Assembly (NCBI GenBank): GCA_016190145.1
Contig: JACPRD010000130.1
Coordinates: 6,528-70,527 of the forward strand
Length of the DNA stretch: 64,000 nucleotides
Direction of reading: 5' to 3'
DNA from: Planctomycetota bacterium
GTDB taxonomy: Bacteria > Planctomycetota > MHYJ01 > WSZJ01
Shown here: piece by piece, positions 5,568 to 46,079 of the stretch
Layout of the letters: every line of letters starts with the position of its first letter
How positions within the stretch are numbered: the stretch's first letter is position 1
Translations under genes and position numbers: made by a program
The notes under the pieces: generated by a model
Databases searched by the model: none
What the model was told of the DNA's origin: nothing
The model's input: the letters and a program-made list of their open reading frames with translations, nothing else

Positions 5568-5710
5568 CGCGCGATGGTAACGAGGAACGGCAGGACTTAG
5601 GAGTGAGTGATGAGGGGTGAGGATCGTCTGGGGGTGGGGAGAGCGGCAGGCGGAGGCTCTCGCCTTTCCTCACCCCTCACCGCTAACTCCCAATTCCTGC
5701 AGGTCCGGAC

Positions 5711-7611: not shown

Positions 7612-8166
7612 ATGGCGCTGGAAGAACTGTTCTTCTCCGTCGACGTCGAAGCGAGCGGCCCGATCCCGGCGGAGTACAGCCTGCTCTCCATCGGCTGCGC
7701 CCTCGTGGGCCGCCCCGAGGCGACCTTCTACGCGGAACTCAAACCGGTCAACGGCAACGCCGTCCCCGAGGCGCTCAAGGTCGCCGGCCTCGACATGGAG
7801 AAACTCCGCGAGAAGGGCGAAGAGCCCGCGGCCGCCATGAAACGCTTCGCCGCCTGGATCAGGGAAACCTGCGGCGCCACCCACCGCCCCGTCTTCGCCG
7901 CGTTCAACGCGACGTTTGACTGGATGTTCGTGCACTGGTACTTCGTCAAGTTCACCGGCGCAAGCCCCTTCTCCATCAGCGGACTCGACATGAAGGCCTA
8001 CTACATGGGGATGATGGGCACCGGCTGGGGCGGCACGAAGAAGGAGCACGTGACGAAGAAGTTCCCGACGAAGGCGCAGCACACGCACAATGCGCTCGAC
8101 GACGCGAAGGAGCAGGCGGAGCTGTTCGGGCAGATGCTCGAGTATCAGAAGTTGCGCAAGGGGTGA
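7612..8166 (+). CDS. DEDDh-type 3'-5' exonuclease
   Basis: 184-aa ORF. Exo I FSVDVEASGP, Exo II FNATFDWMF, Exo III HNALDDAKEQA. Confidence 0.7.
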   Translation: MALEELFFSVDVEASGPIPAEYSLLSIGCALVGRPEATFYAELKPVNGNAVPEALKVAGLDMEKLREKGEEPAAAMKRFAAWIRETCGATHRPVFAAFNATFDWMFVHWYFVKFTGASPFSISGLDMKAYYMGMMGTGWGGTKKEHVTKKFPTKAQHTHNALDDAKEQAELFGQMLEYQKLRKG

Positions 8167-13079: not shown

Positions 13080-13469
13080 TATATGACACAATCCCGCCCC
13101 TGTCAAGCTCCCGCCTGGTCCCACGGATTCCCCCGAACCTTTCCACCCCCGCCCGCGATGAACTCTCTGTCGCCCGGCGCCACGGGACCGTAGGTCAACA
13201 GGAGATCGCCCGGCTGTGGCCCAGGAGACGTCGGTGCAACCCCGACCGGTCCCTTGAAAGGACGGCGCATGCCAGACGACGGAAGTGCGAATCGCCCCGA
13301 AGCGATCCCGCACCAACGATTGTCCAGACGCAGGTCCCGAAACCCGCTCGTTTGCGGGTCGAGAGGCTCTTTGACATCCGGCGGACTTTCCCAGGGCCGG
13401 CCCCCGGCCCCCATTCTCTCCCCTTCTCTCGGGGCCGGGGACCGGTCCGATTCTCTCTCTTCCCTCGCC

Positions 13470-13542
13470 TGGGGTGTCGTCTAACGGCTGAGGACGGCGG
13501 CCTCTCACGCTGCAGATGCAGGTTCAACTCCTGTCACCCCGA
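13470..13542 (+). tRNA. tRNA-Glu(CUC)
   Basis: Manual cloverleaf. Acceptor TGGGGTG/CACCCCG; D GTCT/GGAC; AC GCGGC-CTCTCAC-GCTGC (anticodon 13504-13506); T GCAGG-TTCAACT-CCTGT. No CCA. Confidence 0.8.
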
Positions 13543-13652
13543 TTCGGGAAGCGGAACGGAGGCCCGCGCTGCGGCGCCGGAGCGATGTCCCGGTATTCCC
13601 GAGGCAGTCCACCGGCGCCTCCGCGCGGGCCCCACGTTCCGCTTCCCGAATC
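13541..13652 (+). repeat. inter-tRNA GC-rich extended hairpin element H1
   Basis: 18-bp basal stem GATTCGGGAAGCGGAACG / CGTTCCGCTTCCCGAATC. Inner stems GGCCCGCGC/GCGCGGGCC and GGCGCCGG/CCGGCGCC. First nt is nt 72 of tRNA-Glu. Confidence 0.75.
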
Positions 13653-13671
13653 GGCGTAAAAAGAAAAGCAC

Positions 13672-13744
13672 GTCCTGGTAGCTCAACCAGAAGAGCGCCA
13701 GTCTCCGAAGCTGGAGGGTGCAGGCGCGAATCCTGCCCAGGACA
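13672..13744 (+). tRNA. tRNA-Arg(CCG), atypical T and D loops
   Basis: Acceptor GTCCTGG/CCAGGAC; AC CCAGT-CTCCGAA-GCTGG (anticodon 13705-13707); T GCAGG-CGCGAAT-CCTGC (C54 G55). D loop AACCAGAA lacks GG. Confidence 0.65.
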
Positions 13745-13748
13745 TCTC

Positions 13749-13819
13749 TGCGGGATGGATCAGGAGTTGATCGGCGGTCTCATAAGCCGCAAAGGAGGGT
13801 GCAAGTCCCTCTCCCGCTA
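13749..13819 (+). tRNA. tRNA-Met(CAU), initiator-like
   Basis: Acceptor TGCGGGA/TCCCGCT with a 1:72 U.U mismatch; D stem GATC/GATC (A11:U24); AC GCGGT-CTCATAA-GCCGC (anticodon 13781-13783); T GAGGG-TGCAAGT-CCCTC (G55); A73. Confidence 0.65.
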
Positions 13820-13822
13820 TCT

Positions 13823-13919
13823 TCAATTCGGGAGTCGTGAGACGCGCGCTGGACGCGAGAGGCGCGCGCAAGGTGCGCGCCTCGAGCGGCCGGCGCACGG
13901 CTCGCGACTCCCGAATTGA
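13823..13919 (+). repeat. inter-tRNA GC-rich extended hairpin element H2
   Basis: Basal stem TCAATTCGGGAGTCG / CGACTCCCGAATTGA. Inner hairpin GAGGCGCGC-GCAAGGT-GCGCGCCTC. Ends 1 nt before tRNA-Cys. Confidence 0.75.
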
Positions 13920-13920
13920 G

Positions 13921-13994
13921 GCGCGTGTGCCCGAGTGGTCGAAGGGTCCGGTTTGCAAAATCGGAATCCGCTGGTTCGAATCCAGCCGCGCGCT
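13921..13994 (+). tRNA. tRNA-Cys(GCA)
   Basis: Acceptor GCGCGTG/CGCGCGC; AC CCGGT-TTGCAAA-ATCGG (anticodon 13955-13957); T GCTGG-TTCGAAT-CCAGC. Confidence 0.85.
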
Positions 13995-14002
13995 TTCTCG
14001 CA

Positions 14003-14074
14003 CGGGCTGTAGCGCAGGGGAAGCGCGCTTCGTTGGGGTCGAAGAGGTCGGAAGTTCGAACCTTCCCAGCCCGA
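14003..14074 (+). tRNA. tRNA-Pro(GGG)
   Basis: Acceptor CGGGCTG/CAGCCCG (C1:G72); D GCGC/GCGC; AC CTTCG-TTGGGGT-CGAAG (anticodon 14035-14037); T GGAAG-TTCGAAC-CTTCC. Confidence 0.85.
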
Positions 14075-14080
14075 TATTTC

Positions 14081-14154
14081 GGGGGCGTCGTCTAGGGGCT
14101 CAGGACACCGCCCTGTCACGGCGGAGACCACGGGTTCAAATCCCGTCGCCCTCG
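14081..14154 (+). tRNA. tRNA-Asp(GUC)
   Basis: Acceptor GGGGGCG/CGCCCTC; D GTCT/GGAC; AC CCGCC-CTGTCAC-GGCGG (anticodon 14115-14117); T ACGGG-TTCAAAT-CCCGT. Confidence 0.85.
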
Positions 14155-14156
14155 TT

Positions 14157-14257
14157 TCGATGCGCGCAGCGCTCCGCAGAGGCGGCGGTCGCACGTCGGC
14201 CCGGCTGCGCCGGGCCTCGCGCGACCGCTCGCCCCTGCTACGCGCCGCGCGCATCGA
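14157..14257 (+). repeat. inter-tRNA GC-rich extended hairpin element H3 (same subfamily as H8)
   Basis: Basal stem TCGATGCGCGC / GCGCGCATCGA. Apical hairpin GGCCCGGC-TGC-GCCGGGCC. Shares the CGCTCGCCCCTGCT segment with H8. Starts 3 nt after tRNA-Asp. Confidence 0.75.
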
Positions 14258-14278
14258 CGGAACGGCAAGGAAATGCAA

Positions 14279-14351
14279 AGGGGTGTGGGCTAACCGGTAA
14301 GTCACCTCCCTGTTAAGGAGGTTGATCCAGGTTCGAATCCTGGTGCCCCTG
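14279..14351 (+). tRNA. tRNA-Asn(GUU)
   Basis: Acceptor AGGGGTG/TGCCCCT; AC CCTCC-CTGTTAA-GGAGG (anticodon 14312-14314); T CCAGG-TTCGAAT-CCTGG. Confidence 0.8.
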
Positions 14352-14363
14352 TTCGTTTTCGAA

Positions 14364-14453
14364 GGGATTCGCGCGGGTCCAGGACTGCCTGTGCCTTCGT
14401 TGAGCCAAGTTGGACCGTGACCCTGACGGGCGACGCACGGCCCGCCGAATCCC
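14364..14453 (+). repeat. degenerate inter-tRNA hairpin element H3b
   Basis: Basal stem GGGATTCG(C)GCGGG / CCCGC(C)GAATCCC with one bulge on each strand. Interior pairs only partially (GGTCC...GGACC). Confidence 0.45.
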
Positions 14454-14465
14454 CACGCAAACCAC

Positions 14466-14556
14466 GGATGGTTGGCAGAGCCCGGCTTAATGCGCCTGTC
14501 TCGAAAACAGGAGCTCCTGAAACACGGAGCCGGAGGTTCGAATCCTCCACCATCCT
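14466..14556 (+). tRNA. tRNA-Ser(CGA), class II
   Basis: Acceptor GGATGGT/ACCATCC; AC CCTGT-CTCGAAA-ACAGG (anticodon 14502-14504); long variable arm GCTCC...GGAGC; T GGAGG-TTCGAAT-CCTCC. Confidence 0.85.
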
Positions 14557-14560
14557 TCCA

Positions 14561-14649
14561 GGGGAGATGGCCGAGCGGTTGAAGGCACCGCGGTGCTAAC
14601 GCGGCGGGCCCCCTCGGGGGCCCCGAAGGTTCGAATCCTTCTCTTCCCG
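14561..14649 (+). tRNA. tRNA-Ser(GCU), class II
   Basis: Acceptor GGGGAGA/TCTTCCC; AC CCGCG-GTGCTAA-CGCGG (anticodon 14595-14597); long variable arm GGGCCCCC-TC-GGGGGCCC; T GAAGG-TTCGAAT-CCTTC. Confidence 0.85.
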
Positions 14650-14660
14650 TCCAATCTCCC

Positions 14661-14732
14661 GGGGGCGTGGCCGACCGGCAAGGCACCTGCCCGGCAGGCA
14701 GGACCACGAGGGTTCAAGTCCCTCCGCTTCCA
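14661..14732 (+). tRNA. tRNA-Ala(GGC) with C33
   Basis: Acceptor GGGGGCG/CGCTTCC including G3:U70; AC CCTGC-CCGGCAG-GCAGG (anticodon 14693-14695, position 33 = C); T GAGGG-TTCAAGT-CCCTC. Confidence 0.7.
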
Positions 14733-14744
14733 TCCGCTCGACAA

Positions 14745-14816
14745 GGGGGTGTGGCCTAACGGCAAGGCACCTGCGTCGCAAGCAGGAGTATGAGGGTTCA
14801 AATCCCTCCACTTCCA
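14745..14816 (+). tRNA. tRNA-Ala(CGC)
   Basis: Acceptor GGGGGTG/CACTTCC including G3:U70; AC CCTGC-GTCGCAA-GCAGG (anticodon 14777-14779); T GAGGG-TTCAAAT-CCCTC. Confidence 0.8.
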
Positions 14817-14821
14817 TCCGA

Positions 14822-14892
14822 AGGGGCGTCGTTCAGCAGGAGGACCCCGGTTTCCAAGTCCGGTGACGAGGGTGCAATTCCTTCCGCCCCTG
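14822..14892 (+). tRNA. tRNA-Trp(CCA), atypical T loop
   Basis: Acceptor AGGGGCG/CGCCCCT; AC CCGGT-TTCCAAG-TCCGG (31:39 U.U; anticodon 14854-14856); T GAGGG-TGCAATT-CCTTC (G55). Confidence 0.65.
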
Positions 14893-14911
14893 TTGTCAGC
14901 CCGCCGTTCCT

Positions 14912-15013
14912 CCAATTCGAGGCTTGCGGAGAGGGACGGCACGAGCGCGCCCCCGAGCGCGCAGCACGAGGGGCGTGCGCGAGCGCCGGGCCTCGCAGCG
15001 AGTTTCGAATTGG
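14912..15013 (+). repeat. inter-tRNA GC-rich extended hairpin element H4 (same subfamily as H5)
   Basis: Basal stem CCAATTCGA / TCGAATTGG, extended by G.U-rich pairing. 50-nt core at 14938-14987 is 49/50 identical to 15446-15495. Last nt is nt 1 of tRNA-Glu(UUC). Confidence 0.75.
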
Positions 15014-15083
15014 GGCGCGTCGGCTAGTGGAAGGCCCCCAGGCTTTCATCCTGACAGCGCGGGTTCGATTCCCGCCGCGCCTA
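15013..15083 (+). tRNA. tRNA-Glu(UUC)
   Basis: Acceptor GGGCGCG/CGCGCCT; AC CCAGG-CTTTCAT-CCTGA (27:43 C.A; anticodon 15045-15047); T GCGGG-TTCGATT-CCCGC. Confidence 0.8.
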
Positions 15084-15090
15084 TCTGTGA

Positions 15091-15163
15091 AGGAGCGTCG
15101 CTTAGTGGTTGAGCACCGGTTTCTTAAACCGGACGAGGAAGGGTTCGAATCCCTCCGCTCCTA
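15091..15163 (+). tRNA. tRNA-Lys(CUU)
   Basis: Acceptor AGGAGCG/CGCTCCT; AC CCGGT-TTCTTAA-ACCGG (anticodon 15123-15125); T AAGGG-TTCGAAT-CCCTC with a 49:65 A.C mismatch or a bulged A. Confidence 0.75.
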
Positions 15164-15167
15164 TCCC

Positions 15168-15239
15168 GGGGTTGTAGCTCAAAGGCCGAGCACCTGTTTT
15201 TTAAGCAGAGAGATGTGGGTTCGATCCCCACCGGCCCCA
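15168..15239 (+). tRNA. tRNA-Lys(UUU)
   Basis: Acceptor GGGGTTG/CGGCCCC; D GCTC/GAGC; AC CCTGT-TTTTTAA-GCAGA (anticodon 15200-15202); T GTGGG-TTCGATC-CCCAC. Confidence 0.8.
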
Positions 15240-15250
15240 TTCGGTCCAAG

Positions 15251-15322
15251 AGGGGAGTCAGGTAACTGGTAACCACCGAGTCCCTGAAACTCGCCATGCT
15301 GGTTCGAATCCAGCCTCCCCTA
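15251..15322 (+). tRNA. tRNA-Gln(CUG) with C33
   Basis: Acceptor AGGGGAG/CTCCCCT; AC CGAGT-CCCTGAA-ACTCG (anticodon 15284-15286, position 33 = C); T GCTGG-TTCGAAT-CCAGC. Confidence 0.7.
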
Positions 15323-15332
15323 TGAAAAACGC

Positions 15333-15403
15333 GGGCACGTAGGCTAACGGCAGGCCACCAGGTTCTCAGCCTGACAGCGAGGGTTCGATTCCCTCCGTGC
15401 CTA
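15333..15403 (+). tRNA. tRNA-Glu(CUC), paralog of the tRNA at 15013
   Basis: Acceptor GGGCACG/CGTGCCT; AC CCAGG-TTCTCAG-CCTGA (anticodon 15365-15367); T GAGGG-TTCGATT-CCCTC. Confidence 0.8.
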
Positions 15404-15419
15404 TCTGAAAGCCCTTCCT

Positions 15420-15521
15420 CTCGATTCGAGGAGCGGGAGGTGAAGGGCACGAGCGCGCCCCCGAGCGCGCAGCGCGAGGGGCGTGCGCGAGCGCCCTTCA
15501 CCGGACGCTCCTCGAATCGAG
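15420..15521 (+). repeat. inter-tRNA GC-rich extended hairpin element H5 (same subfamily as H4)
   Basis: 16-bp basal stem CTCGATTCGAGGAGCG / CGCTCCTCGAATCGAG. Inner stem GGTGAAGG/CCTTCACC encloses the conserved 50-nt core at 15446-15495. Last nt is nt 1 of tRNA-Phe. Confidence 0.8.
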
Positions 15522-15593
15522 GTGAAGTAGCTTAGACGGTCTGAGCGCCTGGTTGAAAACCAGGAGGCGGAGGTTCGATACCTCCCTTCACCA
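15521..15593 (+). tRNA. tRNA-Phe(GAA)
   Basis: Acceptor GGTGAAG/CTTCACC; AC CCTGG-TTGAAAA-CCAGG (anticodon 15555-15557); T GGAGG-TTCGATA-CCTCC. Confidence 0.85.
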
Positions 15594-15597
15594 TTGC

Positions 15598-15670
15598 GCG
15601 GGCGTCGTCCAACGGACCAGGACCCGAGACTACGAATCTCGAGATGAGGGTTCGATTCCTTCCGCCCGTA
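15598..15670 (+). tRNA. tRNA-Arg(ACG)
   Basis: Acceptor GCGGGCG/CGCCCGT; D GTCC/GGAC; AC CGAGA-CTACGAA-TCTCG (anticodon 15632-15634); T GAGGG-TTCGATT-CCTTC. Confidence 0.85.
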
Positions 15671-15673
15671 TCG

Positions 15674-15745
15674 CGGGGCGTGGCCGAGAAGAGAGGCTCC
15701 CGTTTCCTAAACGGGACCACGCAGGTGCGACTCCTGCCGTCCCGA
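15674..15745 (+). tRNA. tRNA-Arg(CCU), atypical T and D loops
   Basis: Acceptor CGGGGCG/CGTCCCG; AC CCCGT-TTCCTAA-ACGGG (anticodon 15706-15708); T GCAGG-TGCGACT-CCTGC (G55). D loop GAGAAGAGA has no GG. Confidence 0.65.
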
Positions 15746-15749
15746 CTTG

Positions 15750-15820
15750 GCTCCCGTCGTCCAGCGGAAGGGCCCCCGTCCTCTAAACGGGCGACGCAGG
15801 TTCGACCCCTGCCGGGAGCG
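15750..15820 (+). tRNA. tRNA-Arg(UCU) with C33
   Basis: Acceptor GCTCCCG/CGGGAGC; AC CCCGT-CCTCTAA-ACGGG (anticodon 15782-15784, position 33 = C); T GCAGG-TTCGACC-CCTGC. Confidence 0.7.
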
Positions 15821-15828
15821 TCATCCAA

Positions 15829-15909
15829 GGGCGTGTACGGAATGGGATAACCGCGCCGGCCGTAACCCGGCAGCCTCGCGCTTAGAAGGTTCGAGTCCTT
15901 CCGCGCCCA
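15829..15909 (+). tRNA. tRNA-Tyr(GUA), class II, with C33
   Basis: Acceptor GGGCGTG/CGCGCCC; AC GCCGG-CCGTAAC-CCGGC (anticodon 15862-15864, position 33 = C); 13-nt variable arm; T GAAGG-TTCGAGT-CCTTC. Confidence 0.75.
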
Positions 15910-15947
15910 TTGATCACGAGAGACTTCCAGGAAATGCTTTGCCTCCC

Positions 15948-16066
15948 AGAGTTTGAGAGAAAACCGGGATGGGGGGCGGAGTCGGCCGGCTCGTCCAGTC
16001 CCGGCCGCATCGTGGGCCTTCCTGCCGGCCGACGGAGCATCCCAGCCCGGTTTTCTCTCAAACTCT
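15948..16066 (+). repeat. inter-tRNA extended hairpin element H6
   Basis: Perfect 21-bp basal stem AGAGTTTGAGAGAAAACCGGG / CCCGGTTTTCTCTCAAACTCT. Inner stem GTCGGCCGG/CCGGCCGAC. Ends 1 nt before tRNA-Gly(GCC). Confidence 0.8.
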
Positions 16067-16067
16067 T

Positions 16068-16139
16068 GCGGCTGTAGCTCAACGGCAGAGCGCCACGTTG
16101 CCAACGTGGATACTGCGGGTTCAAGCCCCGCCAGTCGCT
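16068..16139 (+). tRNA. tRNA-Gly(GCC)
   Basis: Acceptor GCGGCTG/CAGTCGC; D GCTC/GAGC; AC CCACG-TTGCCAA-CGTGG (anticodon 16100-16102); T GCGGG-TTCAAGC-CCCGC. Confidence 0.85.
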
Positions 16140-16145
16140 TTCTTT

Positions 16146-16219
16146 CAGGACGTAGCGGAGCCTGGTAACGCGCTTCGTTCGGGGCGAAGAGACCGGTGGT
16201 TCGAATCCACCCGTCCTGA
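16146..16219 (+). tRNA. tRNA-Pro(CGG)
   Basis: Acceptor CAGGACG/CGTCCTG (C1:G72); AC CTTCG-TTCGGGG-CGAAG (anticodon 16180-16182, G37); T GGTGG-TTCGAAT-CCACC. Confidence 0.85.
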
Positions 16220-16235
16220 TTTTCTCGGCAGACGC

Positions 16236-16308
16236 GCTTCTGTAGCCCAACGGAAGAGGCACCAAGCTCAGAACTTGGCGAGTGGAGGTTCGAATCCTCC
16301 CGGAAGCA
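16236..16308 (+). tRNA. class I (short variable arm) tRNA with Leu anticodon CAG
   Basis: Acceptor GCTTCTG/CGGAAGC; D arm TAGCCCAACGGAAGAGGC; AC CCAAG-CTCAGAA-CTTGG (anticodon 16269-16271); variable region only 5 nt (CGAGT); T GGAGG-TTCGAAT-CCTCC; A73. Confidence 0.7.
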
Positions 16309-16324
16309 TTTTGAATCTCAGAAC

Positions 16325-16395
16325 GGTCTCGTAGCTCAAAGGCAGAGCGCCGGTCTCACATACCGGTGACGGAGGTTCGAGTCCTTCCGGGACCA
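16325..16395 (+). tRNA. tRNA-Val(CAC)
   Basis: Acceptor GGTCTCG/CGGGACC; D GCTC/GAGC; AC CCGGT-CTCACAT-ACCGG (anticodon 16357-16359); T GGAGG-TTCGAGT-CCTTC. Confidence 0.85.
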
Positions 16396-16405
16396 TGGAC
16401 ACACG

Positions 16406-16477
16406 GCTCCTGTGGTCTAGCGGCCGGGCACCAGCGCGACATGCTGGGCAAGGCAGGTTCGACTCCTGCCGGGAGCA
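16406..16477 (+). tRNA. tRNA-Val(GAC) with G32 C33
   Basis: Acceptor GCTCCTG/CGGGAGC; AC CCAGC-GCGACAT-GCTGG (anticodon 16438-16440, position 33 = C); T GCAGG-TTCGACT-CCTGC. Confidence 0.7.
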
Positions 16478-16483
16478 CTTCAT

Positions 16484-16554
16484 GCCTCTCTAGTTCAATG
16501 GGAGAACCCCTGCTTCCCACGCAGGTGACGAGGGATCGATACCCTCGAGAGGCT
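16484..16554 (+). tRNA. tRNA-Gly(CCC), A54 T loop
   Basis: Acceptor GCCTCTC/GAGAGGC; D GTTC/GAAC; AC CCTGC-TTCCCAC-GCAGG (anticodon 16516-16518); T GAGGG-ATCGATA-CCCTC. Confidence 0.75.
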
Positions 16555-16558
16555 CTTG

Positions 16559-16629
16559 GCGCCTGTAGCTCAAGGGGAGAGCCCCCGCCCGATAAGCGGG
16601 AGATGCAGGTTCAAGTCCTGACTGGCGCA
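16559..16629 (+). tRNA. tRNA-Ile(GAU) with C33; two stem mismatches
   Basis: Acceptor GCGCCTG/CTGGCGC (6:67 U.U); AC CCCGC-CCGATAA-GCGGG (anticodon 16591-16593, position 33 = C); T GCAGG-TTCAAGT-CCTGA (49:65 G.A). Confidence 0.6.
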
Positions 16630-16673
16630 TTGAGACCCGGGAGGAGTTCCCGGACCGACTGCCTCGGCATCCC

Positions 16674-16775
16674 AGAGCGCGTGAACGATTCGATTGGAGG
16701 CGCGCGGCCGGGGCGAGCGACGCGAAGCGGCGCCAGGTCCGGCCCCCGCCGGAGATCGAGTCGTTCACGCGCTCT
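16674..16775 (+). repeat. inter-tRNA GC-rich extended hairpin element H7
   Basis: 15-bp basal stem AGAGCGCGTGAACGA / TCGTTCACGCGCTCT, continued by TTCGAT/ATCGAG pairing. The 3' arm overlaps the first 5 nt of tRNA-Thr (16771-16775). Confidence 0.75.
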
Positions 16776-16841
16776 TGTAGCTCAACGGTGAGCACCTGCC
16801 TCGTAAGCAGGGGGATGTGGGTTCGATTCCCACCAGGAGCT
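16771..16841 (+). tRNA. tRNA-Thr(CGU)
   Basis: Acceptor GCTCTTG/CAGGAGC; D GCTC/GAGC; AC CCTGC-CTCGTAA-GCAGG (anticodon 16802-16804); T GTGGG-TTCGATT-CCCAC. Confidence 0.85.
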
Positions 16842-16843
16842 TC

Positions 16844-16938
16844 GGAATCGCGCGCGCTTCGCAGGGGCGGCTCGCGCACGGCGGCCGGGCTTCGCCCGGC
16901 CTGGCGCGCTCGCTCGCCCCTGCTGCGCGCGCGATTTC
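16844..16938 (+). repeat. inter-tRNA GC-rich extended hairpin element H8 (same subfamily as H3)
   Basis: Basal stem GGAATCGCGCGCGC / GCGCGCGCGATTTC. Also GCAGGGGCG/CGCCCCTGC. Apical hairpin GGCCGGGC-TTC-GCCCGGCC. Starts 3 nt after tRNA-Thr. Confidence 0.8.
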
Positions 16939-16967
16939 GAAAAGGGAAAGGCGCCGGGAAGGAGAAG

Positions 16968-17040
16968 GCTCTCGTAGCCCAACGGCAGAGGCGGCGGTCT
17001 CAAGAACCGCGCGGTGCAGGTTCGAATCCTGCCGGGAGCA
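16968..17040 (+). tRNA. class I (short variable arm) tRNA with Leu anticodon CAA
   Basis: Acceptor GCTCTCG/CGGGAGC; D arm TAGCCCAACGGCAGAGGC; AC GCGGT-CTCAAGA-ACCGC (anticodon 17001-17003); 5-nt variable region (GCGGT); T GCAGG-TTCGAAT-CCTGC; A73. Confidence 0.7.
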
Positions 17041-17050
17041 TCGAAGAAAC

Positions 17051-17125
17051 GCCCTCGTAGCCCAATCTGGCAGAGGCCCATGGTTGAGGGCCATGGTGGT
17101 GATGGTTCGATTCCATCCGAGGGCA
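17051..17125 (+). tRNA. class I (short variable arm) tRNA with Leu anticodon GAG
   Basis: Acceptor GCCCTCG/CGAGGGC; D arm TAGCCCAATCTGGCAGAGGC; AC CATGG-TTGAGGG-CCATG (anticodon 17086-17088); 5-nt variable region (GTGGT); T GATGG-TTCGATT-CCATC; A73. Confidence 0.7.
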
Positions 17126-17248: not shown

Positions 17249-19810
17249 CTAAAGCCGCGGATCGACCGGCTCGCTTTCCAGTGCCAGGACGCCGAAAACA
17301 CATTCGTGGACGCGGCGAAGCGGCTCGTTGCGGACGAAACGCTCGAGCCCCTCGACTCCGAGGGCGAACTCCCTCATCGCAAGAGAACGCTTCGCGCCGA
17401 GGCCGCGGGAGCGGAGCCGACTCAGGTTCGCGGGGATCGAGTAGTCCGGGCCATAGATGATGCGGAGGTACTCGGGTCCGCGGCACTTGACGGCTGGTTG
17501 AGCGACTCCCCTCCGCCCCCGCGCGACGAAGTCCAGCGGCTTTACGACCATTCCCTCTCCACCGCGCGAAGTCAGTTCCTCCCACCAGCGGATCCCCGCC
17601 TGTTCGCTGGCCTCATCTGTGACATTGACCTCGATGAAACCGGTCTCGATGAGGATCTTGCTTCCCTTGCAGAATCGGGAGATGGCGCTCATGTGCCACA
17701 GGTGGTTCTTGTCGAAATACGTTTTCCCCTCGGTGGCCAGCACGTGGAACGGCGCCAGCTTGATGTCCGCCAGCGTCTTGACCGGCCAGCAGTACCCGCG
17801 ATAGGCGGTCACGTATTTCTCGGCGAGAGAAGCGCGTTCGACCGAGCGTTCCAGCAGCGAGGCGACGTCAGCTCCCCGCGCTGCTGCCGTTTTCAGTGTT
17901 TCGACCGAGTCCCTCAGCGCTGCCCCTGACGCCGCCCCGACGGCCGCGTACTGCCGCTTCACCAGCTCCTGGGCCTTCGCCGACCATGGCATCAGTTCGC
18001 AATCGAGGCAGACCCAATCCGTGTCGAATTCCTTCCAGGATTCTGAGCGGTCCAGCGCTTCCCGCAGATGCGCCAGCAGCTCTGTCTCAAACGCGAGATC
18101 TTCGAAGAAGCGGCGCCCGGTGCGAGTCACGCAGATGCCGCTTTCACTGACGATTCCGAATCTGCGACGGGCTGCGTCTTCATTGCGACAAAGCACCACG
18201 ACGACCCGTGATCCCATGTGCTTCTCTTCGCACAGCACCTGCGGAATTCCCTCGTGCCGGAAGTACGCGAAGGCCTGCGCCGGATGCTCCAGCAGACTCC
18301 CCTCCTGCGAGGTCTCCGGCGGCGACATGGTCGGCGGAAGGTAGATCAGCCACTTCGGGTTGGCTGCAAAGCGGCTCATGACCTCGAGCGCGGCGATCGC
18401 GTTCTCTTCGCGGATCGTCACGTTGTGATGGAGGCGCGTCGTCACGATCCTCTTCCCGATCACGTCCGCGAGGTCGAGCAGGTCGTCGTGGGCCTGCTGC
18501 GGGGAGAGCGCCTGAGTCTGGAATTCCGCCGGATGGAAGGGCTTCGCCGGTTTCGCGTACATGGCGCCCGCGGGGACTGAAACAAGCTCCTTCTCCGGGT
18601 AGCGAAGCGCCGTGAGCTTGCCGCCGAAAACGCAGCCGGTATCGATGTTGATCGTGTTGTTGAGCCACTCGGGCGCCGGCACGGGCGTGTGTCCGTAGAC
18701 GACCATGGACGGCCCGCGATACTCCGCGGCCCAGTTGTTGCGGACCGGCAGGCCGAATTCGTCGGTCTCCCCCGTCGTCTCGCCGTAGAGTGCGAACTCC
18801 CGCACCTTGCCGGAGCCTCGACCCTGCATGGTCTCTTTCATCCCGGCGTGCGCCACGACGAGCCCGTTGTCGTCGAGCACGTAGTGGGAGACCAGGTCGT
18901 CAATGAAGGCGGCCGTCTTCTCGCGAAATGCCGCCGGTTCGCGGTCCAGCTGCGCGAGGGATTCGGCAAGACCGTGGGTGATCTGCACGTCCTTGCCGCG
19001 GAGTTTCCGGAGCAGCTTGACGTCGTGGTTTCCCGGGACGCAAAGCGCGGTCCCGGCCTCCACCATGCCCATCACGAGCCGCAGCACGTCCGGAGTGTTC
19101 GGTCCACGATCGACGAGATCGCCCACGAAGACTGCTTTGCGATTCCCGGGCGGCTTCGCGGCAATTGTGCGCTCCCCAGTCGTCGTCACGTCGACGACAT
19201 ACCCGAGACGCTCAAGAAGCGCCTTCGTCTCGTCGAAGCAGCCGTGAATGTCCCCGATGATGTCGAACGGGCCATGATCGCTCTTCCGGTTGTTCCACAA
19301 CGGCTCTCGCTCGATGGTTGCCGCATCGATCTCTTCCGGGCTTGCCAGAACGTGGACGTGCCGGAAGCCTTCAACCTGAAGGTTCCGGAGCGATTTGCGA
19401 AGCTGCTGCGACTGCTGCCGGATGACATGTGGACCGAACGTGCGCTCACTACGCCCGCGGTTGCGGTCCTGGCACAGCCGTTCCGGAAGGTCCAGCACGA
19501 TCGCGACGGGCAGGCAATGGTAGTCCCGGGCCAGCGCGACGAGGGGTTTGCGCGCTTCGGCCTGGACGTTCGTCGCATCGATGACGGTGAGCTTGCCCGC
19601 CGCCAGGCGTTTTCCGGCGATGTAGTGCAGCACCTCAAAGGCCGCGTTCGTGGCAGCTTGATTGTTCTCGTCGTCCGACACGAGGCCGCGGCAGAAGTCT
19701 GAGGACAGGATCTCCGTCGGGAGAAAGTGCTTCCGCCCGAACGTGGACTTCCCGCTGCCCGAGGGGCCGATCAGGACAACGAGGGACAGCTCAGGTATTT
19801 TCAGTTTCAC
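17249..19810 (-). CDS. pnkp: polynucleotide kinase-phosphatase/ligase Pnkp (RNA repair)
   Basis: ORF 17249..19918 trimmed to GTG 19810, which overlaps the hen1 TGA (GTGA). Kinase P-loop GPSGSGKST. Metallophosphoesterase motifs GDIHGC, GDLVDRGP, GNHD. Nucleotidyltransferase-type Lys motif EEKHMGSR in the C-terminal ligase-like domain. 853 aa. Confidence 0.85.
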   Translation of the reverse strand: MKLKIPELSLVVLIGPSGSGKSTFGRKHFLPTEILSSDFCRGLVSDDENNQAATNAAFEVLHYIAGKRLAAGKLTVIDATNVQAEARKPLVALARDYHCLPVAIVLDLPERLCQDRNRGRSERTFGPHVIRQQSQQLRKSLRNLQVEGFRHVHVLASPEEIDAATIEREPLWNNRKSDHGPFDIIGDIHGCFDETKALLERLGYVVDVTTTGERTIAAKPPGNRKAVFVGDLVDRGPNTPDVLRLVMGMVEAGTALCVPGNHDVKLLRKLRGKDVQITHGLAESLAQLDREPAAFREKTAAFIDDLVSHYVLDDNGLVVAHAGMKETMQGRGSGKVREFALYGETTGETDEFGLPVRNNWAAEYRGPSMVVYGHTPVPAPEWLNNTINIDTGCVFGGKLTALRYPEKELVSVPAGAMYAKPAKPFHPAEFQTQALSPQQAHDDLLDLADVIGKRIVTTRLHHNVTIREENAIAALEVMSRFAANPKWLIYLPPTMSPPETSQEGSLLEHPAQAFAYFRHEGIPQVLCEEKHMGSRVVVVLCRNEDAARRRFGIVSESGICVTRTGRRFFEDLAFETELLAHLREALDRSESWKEFDTDWVCLDCELMPWSAKAQELVKRQYAAVGAASGAALRDSVETLKTAAARGADVASLLERSVERASLAEKYVTAYRGYCWPVKTLADIKLAPFHVLATEGKTYFDKNHLWHMSAISRFCKGSKILIETGFIEVNVTDEASEQAGIRWWEELTSRGGEGMVVKPLDFVARGRRGVAQPAVKCRGPEYLRIIYGPDYSIPANLSRLRSRGLGAKRSLAMREFALGVEGLERFVRNEPLRRVHECVFGVLALESEPVDPRL

Positions 19811-21204
19811 CGCGAGAACACCGCCATCTGGGTAGGCGCGCCGACGACGGCGTCCTCGGGGCCGACCGGAAGAATCCGAACTTGATACCCGGCACGGCTG
19901 GCGACACGTTCCGCCCACGCTCTGAAATCAACGCGCGACCATTCGAACCGGTGGTCCTTGTGACGAAACTGGCCGGCAGGAAGCGTCTCGAACTTCACGT
20001 TGTAGTCCGAGTTCGGCGTCGTGAGGACTACGAACCTGGGCTTCGCGTGCTCGAACAGCACGCGCTCGAACGCGTCGAGGCGACCCGGGTCCAGATGTTC
20101 CACGACCTCGATCAGTGCCGCGGCGTCGAACCCCTCGAGACGCTTGTCGCGATAGGTCAGCGATCCCTGGATGAGCTGCAGGCGCGCCTTCTGGATGTCC
20201 GGCATCCGCTCGAGCTTGAGCTTGTCACTCGCGAACTCGAGCGCGCGATGCGAGACGTCCATCCCCAGCACGCGCTCGAAGGTCTTGTCGGCCAGCAGGT
20301 CTCTGAGAAGACGGCCCTCGCCGCATCCGAGGTCCATGACGCTTTTCGCGCCCACTTCTCGAAGCACGGCGACGACTGCCCCCATCCGATGATCGTGAAG
20401 CCGGATCTTCTCTTCCAGCCCAGCTTCCTGCCTTGCCTGATTCTCCCGTGTCGATTCCAGTTCTTCGAGATCGTCGTCCACCAGCCGGGACAACGCGTCG
20501 CGACACAGGTCCCGCCGGTGCTTGAGGTAGCGACGGGCAATCGCGTCCTTCTCCGGATGCCCCGCCAGCCAGCCCTCGCCATGACGAAGCAGTTTCTCGA
20601 CCTCGTCCTCACCGACCCAGTAGTGCTTTGAGTTGTCCAGCACCGGAACCAGCACGTAGAGGTGGCTCAGCAGCTCTTGGAGCATGCGCGTGCCCTGGAG
20701 GTGGAGCGTGAAGTACACACTGTCGCCCCATTCCGGAAAGGTCGGGTCGAGGGAGTGCGGTTCGACGCTGACACGATAGCCGAGCGGCTCGAAGAGAGAC
20801 CGCAGGAACGCCTCGCCGCCGCGGCAGGGGATGACCGAGAGCGTGGCTTCAAGTTTCAGGGGCTTTGACGCCAGCTCCGGCCTCTCCTTGCTTCGCCCGG
20901 CGAGCGCGGAGCCGAAGATCTGCGCGATCGCGACGCTCAGGAACGAAGAAGCAACGTAGGGCCGATCATTCACGTACTGGTCGAGCGAGTGGCCTTCGCC
21001 GCTGCCGGGCTTCCCCCGCACGAGGCCGATCGGGTCGATCTCGAGCAGGAGCGCTGCCGTGCAGCGCTGCTCCGCCGCTTCGGGGTAGAAGACGTGCGCT
21101 TTGCCGAATGAAAGGTCGAAGGACTGCGCGCGAGCAGGATTCTTGTGAAGGAGAAACCCCAGATCCGTGGCTGGAAACGTGGAAGTGGTGATGGTGAGCA
21201 ACAT
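19807..21204 (-). CDS. hen1: RNA 3'-terminal ribose 2'-O-methyltransferase Hen1
   Basis: 465-aa ORF. N-terminus MLLTITTSTFPATDLGFLLHKNPAR is typical of bacterial Hen1. C-terminal SAM motif VMDLGCGEGRLL. Immediately upstream of, and coupled to, pnkp. Confidence 0.85.
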   Translation of the reverse strand: MLLTITTSTFPATDLGFLLHKNPARAQSFDLSFGKAHVFYPEAAEQRCTAALLLEIDPIGLVRGKPGSGEGHSLDQYVNDRPYVASSFLSVAIAQIFGSALAGRSKERPELASKPLKLEATLSVIPCRGGEAFLRSLFEPLGYRVSVEPHSLDPTFPEWGDSVYFTLHLQGTRMLQELLSHLYVLVPVLDNSKHYWVGEDEVEKLLRHGEGWLAGHPEKDAIARRYLKHRRDLCRDALSRLVDDDLEELESTRENQARQEAGLEEKIRLHDHRMGAVVAVLREVGAKSVMDLGCGEGRLLRDLLADKTFERVLGMDVSHRALEFASDKLKLERMPDIQKARLQLIQGSLTYRDKRLEGFDAAALIEVVEHLDPGRLDAFERVLFEHAKPRFVVLTTPNSDYNVKFETLPAGQFRHKDHRFEWSRVDFRAWAERVASRAGYQVRILPVGPEDAVVGAPTQMAVFSR

Positions 21205-37275: not shown

Positions 37276-37863
37276 TCAATCACGTCGGCCTCCTTGAAGT
37301 TCACGGTCGAGGATGGCAAGGACCTCGGCGAGCGCGCGTTCCACGACGTCGTTGACCACCACGTGGTCGTAGAGGTCCTTCCGGTTCATTTCCTGCTCCG
37401 CCACCTTCATCCGCCGCTCGATGACCTCGGGGGCCATCGCGCCGCGTTTCTCCAGCCTCCTGCGCAGATCGTCGAGCGAGGGCGGCGCGAGAAAGACGTA
37501 AATCCCGTCCCACCCCAGCTTCCGGAGCTGCTCCACCCCCTGCACCTCGATCTCGAGCAGCGGGCAGTACCCTCTCTCCGTCTCGGCCTTCACGAACTCC
37601 TTCGGCGTGCCGTACAGGTTCCCCGCGTATTCCGCCCACTCCAGGAAACCGCCCCTCTCCCGCCTCGCGACGAAATCCTCCCTCGACAGGAAAAAGTAAT
37701 CGCGTCCGTGCACCTCGCCCGGCCGCGGAACGCGCGTCGTCGCCGACACCGACCGCACGATCCGCCCCCTCCCCCGCAGGGCGTGGCAGATCGTCGTCTT
37801 CCCGACCCCGCTGGGCCCGGAGATCACGATCAGCCGCCCCTTCGCTTCCCCGTTGCCCGTCAT
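37276..37863 (-). CDS. gmk: guanylate kinase
   Basis: 195-aa ORF: GRLIVISGPSGVGKTTI, TTRVPRPGEVHGRDYFF, EIEVQG. Confidence 0.85.
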   Translation of the reverse strand: MTGNGEAKGRLIVISGPSGVGKTTICHALRGRGRIVRSVSATTRVPRPGEVHGRDYFFLSREDFVARRERGGFLEWAEYAGNLYGTPKEFVKAETERGYCPLLEIEVQGVEQLRKLGWDGIYVFLAPPSLDDLRRRLEKRGAMAPEVIERRMKVAEQEMNRKDLYDHVVVNDVVERALAEVLAILDRELQGGRRD

Positions 37864-38741
37864 TCGATGTTCTGAATCTGCTCCTTCAACTTCTCGATCT
37901 CCGCCTTCATCGCCACGATCCTCTGCGTGAGCCGCGCGTCGTTCGCCTTCGCGCCCATCGTGTTGGCCTCGCGGAGCATCTCCTGCGAAGTGAAATCCAG
38001 GCGGCGGCCGACGTCTCCGCCGGCGGTCATCACGCTGTCGAATTCCTTGAGGTGGGACTCCTGCCGCGCGATTTCCTCGCTGATGTCGCAGCGGTCGGCG
38101 AAGAGGGCGAGCTCGCGGCCGAGGTCGGCGGGGGGCACCGGGGCCTCCGATCCGTCGAGCAGCCGCGCGATGCGCTCCTTCAGGCGGTCGCGGTAGTGCT
38201 CCACGACCGTGGGCGCGAACGCCCGGACTTCCTTCAGCTGCTTCGCGATCTCCTTCAGGATCTCCTTGAGCGGCTTTCGCAGCCTTTCGCCCTCGCGCTT
38301 GCGGGACGCCTCCAGGTCCTCCAGCGCCTTCCGGATCGCTTTCTCCACCTTGGGCCAGATCCGTTCGGCGCCGTTCCTCTCACCGTCGGGACTGCGGACG
38401 ACGCCGGGAAGGGACAGGAGCGCGTCCATGGAGATCGGCGCCTGGATGCCCAGGTCCTTCTGAAGCTGCGACAGTCCCCGGTGGTACTGCTTCATGAGCT
38501 CCCGGTCGAACGGCTCCTCTCGCGCCTCCACGCGCGTCACCACGCGCACGTCGACGTCCACGGTGCCGCGTTTCACGAGCTCCCGCACGCACTCCTCGAC
38601 CGCCGCTTCACGCGCGGCCAGCCGCTCCGGAAGGTGCGTGTGCACCTTGAGATAGCGGTGATTGACGCTGCGGACTTCGACCTCGATCGCGTCCTGCGCG
38701 TCCCGGGCGCGGGCCTGGCCGTAGCCGGTCATGCTTCTCAA
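37860..38741 (-). CDS. yicC: YicC-family stress-induced protein
   Basis: 293-aa ORF. N-terminus MRSMTGYGQA. C-terminus EMLREANTMGAKAND...EIEKLKEQIQNIE. Confidence 0.8.
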   Translation of the reverse strand: MRSMTGYGQARARDAQDAIEVEVRSVNHRYLKVHTHLPERLAAREAAVEECVRELVKRGTVDVDVRVVTRVEAREEPFDRELMKQYHRGLSQLQKDLGIQAPISMDALLSLPGVVRSPDGERNGAERIWPKVEKAIRKALEDLEASRKREGERLRKPLKEILKEIAKQLKEVRAFAPTVVEHYRDRLKERIARLLDGSEAPVPPADLGRELALFADRCDISEEIARQESHLKEFDSVMTAGGDVGRRLDFTSQEMLREANTMGAKANDARLTQRIVAMKAEIEKLKEQIQNIE

Positions 38742-43510: not shown

Positions 43511-43610
43511 GTGGCCTGTGACCAGTTGCCTGTGACCAGTTGCCTGTGACCAGTTGCCAGTGACCAGTTGCCAGTGACCAGTTGCCAGTGACCAGTTGCC
43601 AGTGACCAGC
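43511..43610. repeat. tandem 14-nt repeat (T/A)GTGACCAGTTGCC, about 6.7 copies (reverse-complement heptamer pairs)
   Basis: Units start at 43517, 43531, 43545, 43559, 43573 and 43587, with a partial at 43601. Begins immediately after the stop codon at 43510. Confidence 0.9.
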
Positions 43611-43670
43611 ATGCAGTGAACAGGGCAGGACCAGGACTTACCCGCAGCTTCCGGCTGGTCAATTTTCCTT

Positions 43671-43775
43671 GTCACTGGCCACTGGCCACTGGCAACTGGC
43701 CACTGGCCACTGGCCACTGGTCACTGGCCACTGGTCACTGGCCACTGGCCACTGGTAACTGGTAACTGGTAACTG
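43671..43775. repeat. tandem heptamer repeat (C/A)ACTGG(C/T), 15 copies, inverted relative to 43511-43610
   Basis: GTCACTGGCCACTGGCCACTGGCAACTGG...TAACTGGTAACTG. Ends 1 nt before the stop codon of the ABC permease (43777). Confidence 0.9.
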
Positions 43776-43776
43776 T

Positions 43777-45963: not shown

Positions 45964-45997
45964 GTGGCCAGTTGCCGGTTGCCTGTTGCCAGTGACC
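45964..45997. repeat. degenerate CCAGTTGCC/GTGACC heptamer block (left arm of second inverted pair)
   Basis: GTGGCCAGTTGCCGGTTGCCTGTTGCCAGTGACC. Related to the 43511-43610 units. Confidence 0.7.
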
Positions 45998-46047
45998 GGC
46001 AGGCGGTTGCATCCCGGAGCGGCGAGTGGGCGGAAGCTGCAGTTCCT

Positions 46048-46079
46048 GGCCACTGGCCACTGGCAACAGGCCACTGGCC
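46048..46079. repeat. CACTGGC heptamer block (right arm of second inverted pair)
   Basis: GGCCACTGGCCACTGGCAACAGGCCACTGGCC. Ends 4 nt before the stop of the GT2 gene (46084). Confidence 0.75.

Follow-up and report, generated by a model that had tools for sequence, protein, structure and literature searches.

Polar palindromic hairpins in the long spacers of a Planctomycetes tRNA gene array

Palindromic repeats that occupy intergenic DNA have been described from bacteria and from organelles, and they form the background for the elements reported here, which lie in the long spacers of a tRNA gene array in a 64-kb stretch of contig JACPRD010000130.1 (the window, meaning the whole stretch of DNA that was analysed) from a Planctomycetes metagenome-assembled genome (MAG). 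The elements, hereafter the array hairpins, share an anatomy and a polarity, lie in both orientations, differ in presence and absence between related arrays, are restricted to the arrays in the DNA examined, and have been copied without the tRNA genes that flank them. Our favoured reading, to which we give a probability of about 0.5, is that the long spacers are a locus-restricted superfamily of polar palindromic repeats, most like REPINs and stem-loop MITEs (miniature transposable elements with inverted repeats).

Repetitive extragenic palindromic (REP) sequences, which as doublets form the hairpins called REPINs and are mobilised by the HUH-type enzyme RAYT, are like the array hairpins extragenic imperfect palindromes, REPIN hairpins measuring ~100 nt; both have a short tag beside the palindrome on one strand, occur in both orientations without target duplications, come in sub-families whose stems differ by complementary changes, and show rapid turnover within a lineage (PMC3733652, PMC3116915 and general knowledge). 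The array hairpins differ in that the GTAG/CGTC tag is absent from the ends of all 16 elements, the box here being GCCGTTC-like and outside the stem, in that no dispersed high-copy distribution is seen, all copies in the small part of the genome examined lying in arrays, and in that no RAYT gene occurs among the ~40 open reading frames (ORFs) of the window that were scanned; nor are the arms evidently two small REPs. Stem-loop MITEs (Correia/NEMIS, ERIC, RPE, YPAL) measure 100-170 nt, give one long hairpin when transcribed, are intergenic in either orientation and have semi-conserved inverted ends, for which ATTCGRG...CYCGAAT, in four of the copies here, may be the counterpart. Correia RNA is cut by RNase III. 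Those elements, however, are dispersed, with a well-conserved consensus over the whole length and with target duplications (TA for Correia), whereas the array hairpins are very diverse, confined to one locus, without visible duplication and marked by a strand-specific mismatch bias, and in two families their cores are better conserved than their ends.

Mobile hairpins are also known from mitochondria, as the GC clusters of yeast, the double-hairpin elements of Allomyces and the repetitive hairpin-forming elements of sponges (PMC2800124). Like the array hairpins these are GC-rich, invade short intergenic spacers, often beside tRNA genes, have no known transposase, are present or absent between close relatives and come in several families per genome. 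They differ in being organellar and shorter, and we know of no description of a polarity with a leader box among them. Integron attC sites are imperfect palindromes of 57-141 nt with conserved structure and variable sequence, of which one strand folds into the active form, and which bound the cassettes of strain-variable arrays; here the 'cassettes' would be tRNA genes, and no IntI gene lies nearby. Finally, the RNase III stems of rRNA operons and phage tRNA operons resemble the array hairpins as long double-stranded RNA (dsRNA) helices beside a stable RNA in a polycistronic precursor, but such stems are built from both sides of the mature RNA and conserved in position, whereas the array hairpins are self-contained, dispensable and in half of the cases in the 'wrong' orientation.

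Hairpins in the long spacers of the array

The array consists of 33 tRNA genes at 13184-17125, all on the plus strand within 3.9 kb, of which ARAGORN called 31 and Rfam added a His-like gene (13184-13254) and a Trp-like gene (14822-14892). It falls under the definitions of a tRNA array unit or L-array, namely at least 20 tRNA genes at a density of at least two per kb, on the same strand and with short intergenic distances (Tran 2016, PMC4758250; Santamaria-Gomez 2021, PMC8421152). All 20 amino acids are represented, none of the genes encodes CCA, and after the discriminator base a T opens every spacer of the window (32/32). A spacer-initial T and the absence of an encoded CCA fit 3' processing of the RNase Z type, and as features of the sequence they suggest that the array tRNAs are expressed and matured. 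Spacer lengths in the window are bimodal, with 22 of 32 at 3-16 nt, ten at 100-215 nt and none intermediate, and no spacer of a length between 28 and 57 nt occurs in the three arrays compared. Eight of the ten long spacers of the window hold a single clear hairpin of 92-119 nt with 33-45 complementary arm positions; the other two are a degenerate spacer, S4, and the spacer between tRNA-His and tRNA-Glu, which has a short stem only.

The related arrays used for comparison came from protein searches. One search found the groundwater metagenome contigs L081 and L082 (Pnkp 94% identical), whose homologous array comprises 34 tRNA genes, ordered almost alike and with tRNAs that are 76-92% identical. 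A query with a spurious array ORF returned L088, L089 and one JGI contig; L088 is a contig of 1.2 kb whose tRNAs are 96-100% identical to those of window positions 14279-15324, and L089 represents the same strain as the window (99.9% identity).

Sixteen clear elements were typed by geometry alone, nine as type A and seven as type B. A type A element abuts the 3' end of the upstream tRNA and is followed by a purine-rich tail of 18-30 nt, whereas a type B element abuts the 5' end of the downstream tRNA and is preceded by a leader of up to ~50 nt, with exceptions at H2 (3 nt only) and at the Arg-Met junction of L081 (109 nt, including a second small hairpin). The elements of the window are listed below, with folding z-scores relative to dinucleotide shuffles, differences in minimum free energy (MFE) between strands, and arm mismatches where these were noted; junctions are named by the tRNA genes on either side.

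H1, 13543-13671, minus strand, type A: hairpin 13543-13650 abutting the 3' end of tRNA-Glu, purine-rich tail 13651-13671; z -8.0; minus-strand MFE lower by 6.3 kcal/mol; stem running 4 bp into the end of tRNA-Glu; ATTCGGG at the ends, the ATTCGRG motif being at both.
H2, 13823-13919, plus strand, type B: fills the Met-Cys spacer and abuts the 5' end of tRNA-Cys; z -12.8; mismatches G:T 3, A:C 1; plus strand more stable by 9.1 kcal/mol; ATTCGGG at the ends, the ATTCGRG motif being at both.
H3, 14157-14278, minus strand, type A: hairpin 14157-14257, tail 14258-14278, Asp-Asn junction; the tail contains GGAACGGCAA, read on the minus strand as the GCCGTTCC box; z -7.0; mismatches A:C 4, G:T 0; minus strand more stable by 13.9 kcal/mol.
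S4, 14352-14465, no strand assigned: degenerate hairpin spacer, Asn-Ser(cga) junction; z only -2.0; mismatches G:T 4, A:C 4.
H4, 14893-15012, plus strand, type B: pyrimidine-rich leader 14893-14912 carrying the GCCGTTCC box, hairpin 14913-15012 abutting tRNA-Glu(ttc), core 14938-14987; mismatches G:T 4, A:C 0; plus strand more stable by 12.5 kcal/mol.
H5, 15404-15520, plus strand, type B: leader 15404-15420, hairpin 15421-15520 abutting tRNA-Phe, core 15446-15495; z -7.7; plus strand more stable by 5.0 kcal/mol.
H6, 15910-16067, plus strand, type B: leader 15910-15947, hairpin 15948-16066, 1 nt short of tRNA-Gly(gcc); plus strand more stable by 3.6 kcal/mol.
H7, 16630-16775, plus strand, type B: leader, then hairpin 16679-16770, with the stem running 5 bp into the 5' end of tRNA-Thr; core box GCGCGGCCGGGGCGAGCG on the plus strand.
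H8, 16842-16967, minus strand, type A: hairpin 16842-16940 abutting the 3' end of tRNA-Thr, purine-rich tail 16941-16967; core box on the minus strand.

Folded as RNA, eight of nine spacers gave z-scores of -3.6 to -12.8, and the sense strand of every copy folds strongly too (-62 to -97 kcal/mol). S4 is probably an old, decaying copy; L088 has the spacer at 95.6% identity, whereas in L081 it is lacking and 1 nt separates the genes. Among the ends, ATTCGRG stands out, since of its 16 sites in the window seven fall at the bases of the H1, H2, H4 and H5 stems, while TTCGACTCG...CGAGTCGAA ends are common to a subfamily of L081 and L088 and the ends of other copies are unrelated. At the gathering threshold of Rfam 15 only tRNA passes, and the sub-threshold matches are to generic long-hairpin (microRNA precursor) models; a Y RNA-like RNA was rejected, the sub-threshold YrlA matches lying on tRNAs. 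Intrinsic terminators were likewise rejected, as H1-H8 all go unreported by a terminator scan; the tails are purine-rich on the plus strand and the leaders mixed C/T, in contrast to the U-run of a terminator.

The first spacer of the array, between tRNA-His and tRNA-Glu, is long in the window (13255-13469) and in L081 (21838-22015), and holds an 18-bp GC-rich stem with a pyrimidine-rich loop of 19-22 nt followed by a CT-rich run, flagged as terminator-like by the terminator scan at 13432-13448. Possibly this spacer sets tRNA-His apart from the main array, or contains its promoter or regulator.

Paralogous copies and their compensated stems

An earlier note on this DNA had pointed to a near-identical core in H4 and H5, and this is what the sequences contain: GGCACGAGCGCGCCCCCGAGCGCGCAGC(A/G)CGAGGGGCGTGCGCGAGCGCC, at 14938-14987 and 15446-15495, is identical at 49 of 50 positions, and for a 23-nt part of it the window has exactly two occurrences where 0.02 would be expected. 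The accompanying claim, that the flanking stems differ and nonetheless pair, holds as well. When the two copies are aligned under the fold of H4, pairing is kept in 77/77 cells, 15 core pairs are invariant, and the two outer helices contain seven two-sided and three one-sided pair changes with none broken, while sliding the 3' partner by 1-3 columns as a control gives at most 2. H3 (14157-14257) and H8 (16842-16940), also proposed to be homologous, are 83% identical over 77 nt, and their apical stems, GGCCCGGC-TGC-GCCGGGCC in H3 (14198-14216) and GGCCGGGC-TTC-GCCCGGCC in H8 (16883-16901), differ by the pair swap that had been described, one C-G to G-C; a second two-sided change (G-C to U-A) and three broken pairs complete the comparison. 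With two sequences per family these figures are counts, not a covariation statistic in the sense of R-scape.

The same note had itself raised very recent segmental duplication of tRNA-plus-spacer blocks as a way to explain the similarity, and the genes beside H4 and H5, Glu(ttc) and Glu(ctc), are indeed paralogues with 84% identity. The copies lie, however, at unlike places: H4 between Trp and Glu(ttc), thus upstream of its Glu gene, but H5 between Glu(ctc) and Phe, downstream of its own, H3 in the Asp-Asn spacer, and H8 in the Thr-Leu spacer, with unrelated flanks in the latter two. In both pairs the homology covers the hairpin and the adjacent leader or tail and ends at the tRNA borders, and the core shared by H4 and H5 is 98% identical against 84% for the nearby tRNAs. 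Because paralogue homology stops at the tRNA borders, block duplication is ruled out as the source of these copies, and we give it practically no credence. Further paralogous pairs at unrelated junctions are found in L081, where the Asp-Asn element pairs with that of Ser-Ala and the Ala-Ala element with that of Arg-Tyr.

The note had read the compensated stems as selection on structure and sequence in a functional RNA or DNA element. Its argument against neutral spacer stands, and pairing is kept through two-sided changes, but a conserved functional RNA is not supported. Retention of pairing is no proof of RNA function, because it is equally expected for selfish palindromic DNA or for arm-templated repair, and compensatory pair changes taken alone should therefore not be read as indicating a functional RNA: selfish or self-templating DNA palindromes give the same signal.

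In a rival explanation the palindromes are local and immobile, made and enlarged by intrastrand template switching during replication (quasipalindrome correction and extension), with the cores shared through gene conversion or unequal recombination within the array. Part of the anatomy is in keeping with it. Some palindromes are near-perfect (in the Cys-Pro element of L081, 40 of 43 aligned arm positions are complementary), outer stems diverge between copies and yet pair, and neither a transposase, among the ~40 window ORFs scanned, nor a target duplication was found. Moreover, in six of 16 elements the stem runs on into the neighbouring, constrained tRNA terminus by a further 4-5 Watson-Crick pairs, for which a null from mismatched flanks of 1.25% gives p ~3e-8, and in one paralogous pair the partner base in the stem tracks the local tRNA end. 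What template switching leaves unexplained is the sharing of the leader box and of core boxes among unrelated junctions of two genomes, the orientation-dependent asymmetry of G:T and A:C mismatches, the origin of ~100 nt in spacers that otherwise measure 2-16 nt, and the appearance of an H7-like core at a new junction in L088. We judge it quite improbable.

Polarity and turnover

Each 5' arm was aligned with the reverse complement of its own 3' arm and the mismatches were counted. Type A elements have 27 A:C and 7 G:T mismatches, type B elements 17 G:T and 4 A:C (Fisher p=1.6e-5; p=1.4e-5 when one copy of each paralogous pair is left out). Folding divides the elements in the same way, the minus strand being the better one in 9/9 type A elements, by 0.4-18.9 kcal/mol, and the plus strand in 7/7 type B elements, by 3.6-14.9 kcal/mol; with DNA parameters the same strand preference was obtained in the three hairpins tested (H3, H4 and the Ser-Ala element of L081). 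A regional strand-specific mutation bias was rejected as the cause, because the sign of the asymmetry flips with the orientation of the element within one 4-kb array.

Sequence motifs carry the same polarity. A GCCGTTC-like box (no more than one mismatch) occurs in 10 of 15 leaders, within the 25 nt that precede the hairpin on the strand that folds better, against a maximum of 7 in 100 shuffles; the window shows no enrichment of the exact 10-mer GGAACGGCAA, and the box has support only as a degenerate 7-mer in leaders. Of the 25 best pairs of hairpins, 23 are more alike when placed in the inferred common orientation, as are 13 of 15 opposite-type pairs, and the box GCGnnGCnGGGGCGAGCG lies on the plus strand in the type B elements H7 and Lys-Gln of L088 and on the minus strand in the type A elements H3 and H8. 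The agreement of these measures implies that types A and B are one kind of polar unit, a leader box and a hairpin, in opposite orientations. That the unit lies both ways relative to tRNA transcription argues against a function in sense RNA and for array-restricted repeats resembling REPINs and MITEs.

Comparison of arrays shows how readily the units come and go. In L088 the Trp-Glu(ttc) spacer is 11 nt long, a box-like TGCCTGTTTCC, and H4 is absent; the Lys(ttt)-Gln(ctg) junction holds a hairpin of 116 nt where the window has 11 nt, its core 90% identical over 42 nt to that of H7; and the spacer before Asn holds a different hairpin from the window's. In L081 the Met-Cys, Ile-Thr and Thr-Leu junctions, occupied in the window by H2, H7 and H8, have spacers of 3-12 nt, the junctions of H1, H4, H5 and H6 are rearranged or occupied by extra tRNA genes, and L081 has hairpins of its own at about nine other junctions. 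Asp-Asn is the only hairpin-bearing junction between tRNA genes common to the window and L081, and the hairpins there are unalignable. This suggests that the tRNA genes change far more slowly than copies arrive, multiply within the array and disappear. The H6 junction of L081 contains two extra tRNA genes, tRNA-??? and Gly(tcc), which lie between Tyr and Gly(gcc), where the window has H6; the former, on the minus strand at 18879-18954, is a tRNA-like gene with an irregular anticodon loop and a four-base anticodon, 'tatg', in the ARAGORN output.

These observations do not support a conserved functional RNA co-transcribed with the tRNAs: copies are present or absent between arrays with 96-100% identical tRNAs, most lie at different junctions in L081, H4 is missing from L088, and the same polar element occurs in both orientations, with A:C instead of G:U in half of the sense copies. 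An alternative is that the host selects the hairpins as structures in the polycistronic pre-tRNA, serving as long dsRNA stems for RNase III entry, as insulators or as exonuclease blocks, and dividing the array into stretches of 1-10 tRNAs; a strong hairpin of whatever kind would then suffice, and sequence and orientation would be free to vary. The strong folding of every sense strand, hairpins that directly abut tRNA ends, their restriction to arrays, pairing that survives two-sided changes, and the maintenance of ~9-11 long spacers among 33-34 tRNA genes in both arrays despite turnover all suit this explanation. It fits poorly with the nine type A copies, which have A:C rather than G:U in the sense RNA and fold better as antisense, and with the preservation of the same boxes as reverse complements in types A and B, which a function at the RNA level would not bring about. 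Individual copies are also dispensable, because presence and absence differ between near-identical arrays; stems that reach 4-5 nt into an acceptor end would compete with folding of the tRNA; and most junctions manage with spacers of 2-16 nt. Host selection of this kind appears unlikely.

The rearrangements raise a further possibility, that the hairpins are folded recombination sites, single-stranded and similar to attC or Xer sites, at which tRNA genes or blocks are inserted, excised and shuffled, and which thereby give the array its plasticity. Where the window and L081 differ in tRNA content, the differences tend to fall at junctions with long spacers: the place of H1 is hairpin-Gln(ttg)-hairpin in L081, that of H6 holds the two extra tRNA genes, L081 has a 184-nt spacer where the window has Arg(tct), and H4 and H5 bracket a rearranged block. 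Strand-specific folding is typical of attC, and in L081 most blocks are closed by hairpins of one and the same type. Hairpins are not significantly associated with synteny breakpoints, however (4/8 vs 6/24, p=0.22; 6/7 vs 12/24, p=0.19). Identity with attC was rejected: reading of the hairpin ends shows no R''/R' core sites (RYYYAAC / GTTRRRY), the stems end in TTCG/ATTCG-type sequence, both orientations occur within one array, and no integrase is present among the ~40 scanned window ORFs. Recombination sites of this sort seem a doubtful explanation for the family.

Searches for further copies in other sequence collections gave little. Queries with the array tRNA-Asn and the H4/H5 core had no match in viral contigs, a tRNA-Asn pattern had none in JGI metagenomes, a second protein query with a spurious array ORF returned nothing, the MarR and Pnkp of the window had no record when looked up as exact sequences, and blastn against phages and plasmids gave single-tRNA matches only. 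A profile of spurious array ORFs found in JGI metagenomes only L090 (Ga0315298_1101737), where positions 1-1798 are an unrelated AT-rich tRNA cluster with GC-rich hairpins between the tRNA genes and a cysteine-rich ORF that, judged by eye, is possibly HNH-like. From L090, hairpin-bearing spacers may be more general in mobile tRNA clusters.

Origin of the hairpins and setting of the array

Under the favoured reading, polar palindromic repeats resembling REPINs and stem-loop MITEs, the unit is a pyrimidine-rich leader of ~12-50 nt with a GCCGTTC-like box, followed by an imperfect palindrome of 86-119 nt, of which one DNA strand folds better owing to arm mismatches that are G:T on that strand and not A:C. 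Units lie between tRNA genes either way round, the end with the hairpin being the one that abuts a tRNA terminus, and would be gained, copied within the array and lost. Pairing would be kept since a copy must fold, most likely as single-stranded DNA, to propagate, or alternatively through repair of one arm with the other as template, and not through any need of the sense pre-tRNA transcript. A hairpin beside a tag motif is the arrangement that HUH-type enzymes (RAYT, IS200/IS605 TnpA) recognise, and mobilisation could proceed via a single-stranded intermediate by an enzyme encoded elsewhere. Loss may occur by ordinary palindrome deletion, with which the box-like 11-nt spacer TGCCTGTTTCC at the H4 site of L088 is in accord. 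Where transcribed, the copies would yield 35-50 bp of dsRNA, a substrate for RNase III, presumably as a side effect that was possibly co-opted.

Several observations weigh against this reading. Among the ~40 window ORFs scanned there is no transposase, recombinase, integrase or RAYT domain, and no target-site duplication is seen at flanks or in comparisons of filled and empty junctions. Many copies have unique sequences, so that this is not one high-copy family, and the sample amounts to three arrays only, one of them the 1.2-kb fragment. Copies found only in arrays, within a limited amount of DNA, are explained as well by a function or an origin within the array as by targeted insertion; conservation is far stronger in cores than in outer stems, which the model does not predict; the extension of stems into tRNA (6/16) points to templated palindrome growth or to site-specific selection rather than to simple cut-and-paste; and the similar density in both arrays, ~1 hairpin per 3-4 tRNA genes, could reflect selection. 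Conservation of core over stem, stems that enter tRNA termini and confinement to the array leave room for a more novel mechanism. As one speculative form of it, to which we assign a small chance, the hairpins would be an array-specific system of guided or folded elements of single-stranded DNA, whose leader and stem base pair with tRNA termini to pick insertion sites and whose recombination drives the gain, loss and shuffling of tRNA genes, and with the physically coupled Pnkp-Hen1 repair they would make up an island of 'tRNA backup plus repair' that remodels itself and acts against tRNA-cleaving toxins.

Outside arrays, 60 kb of the window, 17.9 kb of L081 and 13.5 kb of L085 yielded no hairpins of this class. 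Such inverted repeats as do occur there are built of heptamer repeats in arrays. These inverted heptamer arrays are intergenic, form long imperfect hairpins (window 43510-43784 and 45974-46078; L081 3228-3315) and are built of CCAGTGA/CCAGTTG in the window and of GTGCCTC-type units in L081, a class distinct from the array hairpins that is present in both genomes. At 5584-5706 of the window, between two minus-strand genes, lies an imperfect inverted repeat with 40-nt arms that are 83% complementary; it opens with GGAACGGCAG, similar to the tail box of the array hairpins, but the 10-mer shows no enrichment in the window.

The array lies in a high-GC chromosome segment (64-75% GC), with a MarR-type gene upstream and an RNA-repair operon converging on it from downstream, outside the hairpin set. 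The Pnkp of the window matches, at 100% identity, a protein annotated in a Planctomycetes MAG.

pnkp-hen1 operon, 17249-21204, minus strand: RNA-repair operon convergent with the array.
pnkp, 17249-19918, minus strand: Pfam PNKP_ligase, 1.9e-178.
hen1, 19807-21204, minus strand: Pfam Hen1_L, 1.3e-115.

The linkage between array and operon is also present in L081 and L082, where a block of hen1, pnkp, DUF4132 and KAP NTPase genes lies inside the array (L081 4798-22086), flanked by tRNA-Leu(caa) and tRNA-Leu(gag). Pnkp loci of species-representative genomes (60-72% identity) served as a negative control for linkage, with a tRNA array at 0/80, and a lineage at 88% identity (L085-L087) has no adjacent array in the two contigs scanned, L085 and L086. 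Other genes of RNA metabolism in the window encode a MiaB-like radical SAM/TRAM enzyme (550-2013), an RNase T-like 3'-5' exonuclease (7612-8166) and the endoribonuclease YicC (37860-38741).

tRNA arrays have been described in a few Planctomycetes and are thought to have spread horizontally, for use in translational stress or anti-defence (PMC4758250, PMC8421152, PMC12803027); they are discussed as counter-measures to tRNA-cleaving defence systems and toxins (PMC8421152, PMC12803027). In Anabaena translational stress induces the tRNA array, and the hen1-pnkP operon is induced late in the same response (PMC8421152). Here the array and hen1-pnkp are physically linked, in two lineages, and the two may together constitute a combined 'spare tRNAs plus tRNA repair' island against ribotoxins. 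In the text covered by a term search of the array papers PMC4758250 and PMC8421152 neither hairpins nor palindromes are mentioned, and in that of PMC12803027 'stem-loop' is used for plasmid telomeres only.

The conserved physical linkage of array and Pnkp-Hen1 is a lead separate from the hairpins, and testable in its own right. The array hairpins would be an unusual bacterial case of a hairpin element restricted to one locus, and polar palindromes that are confined to an array, that turn over within it and whose stems in some cases include tRNA termini offer a concrete handle on the plasticity of tRNA arrays.

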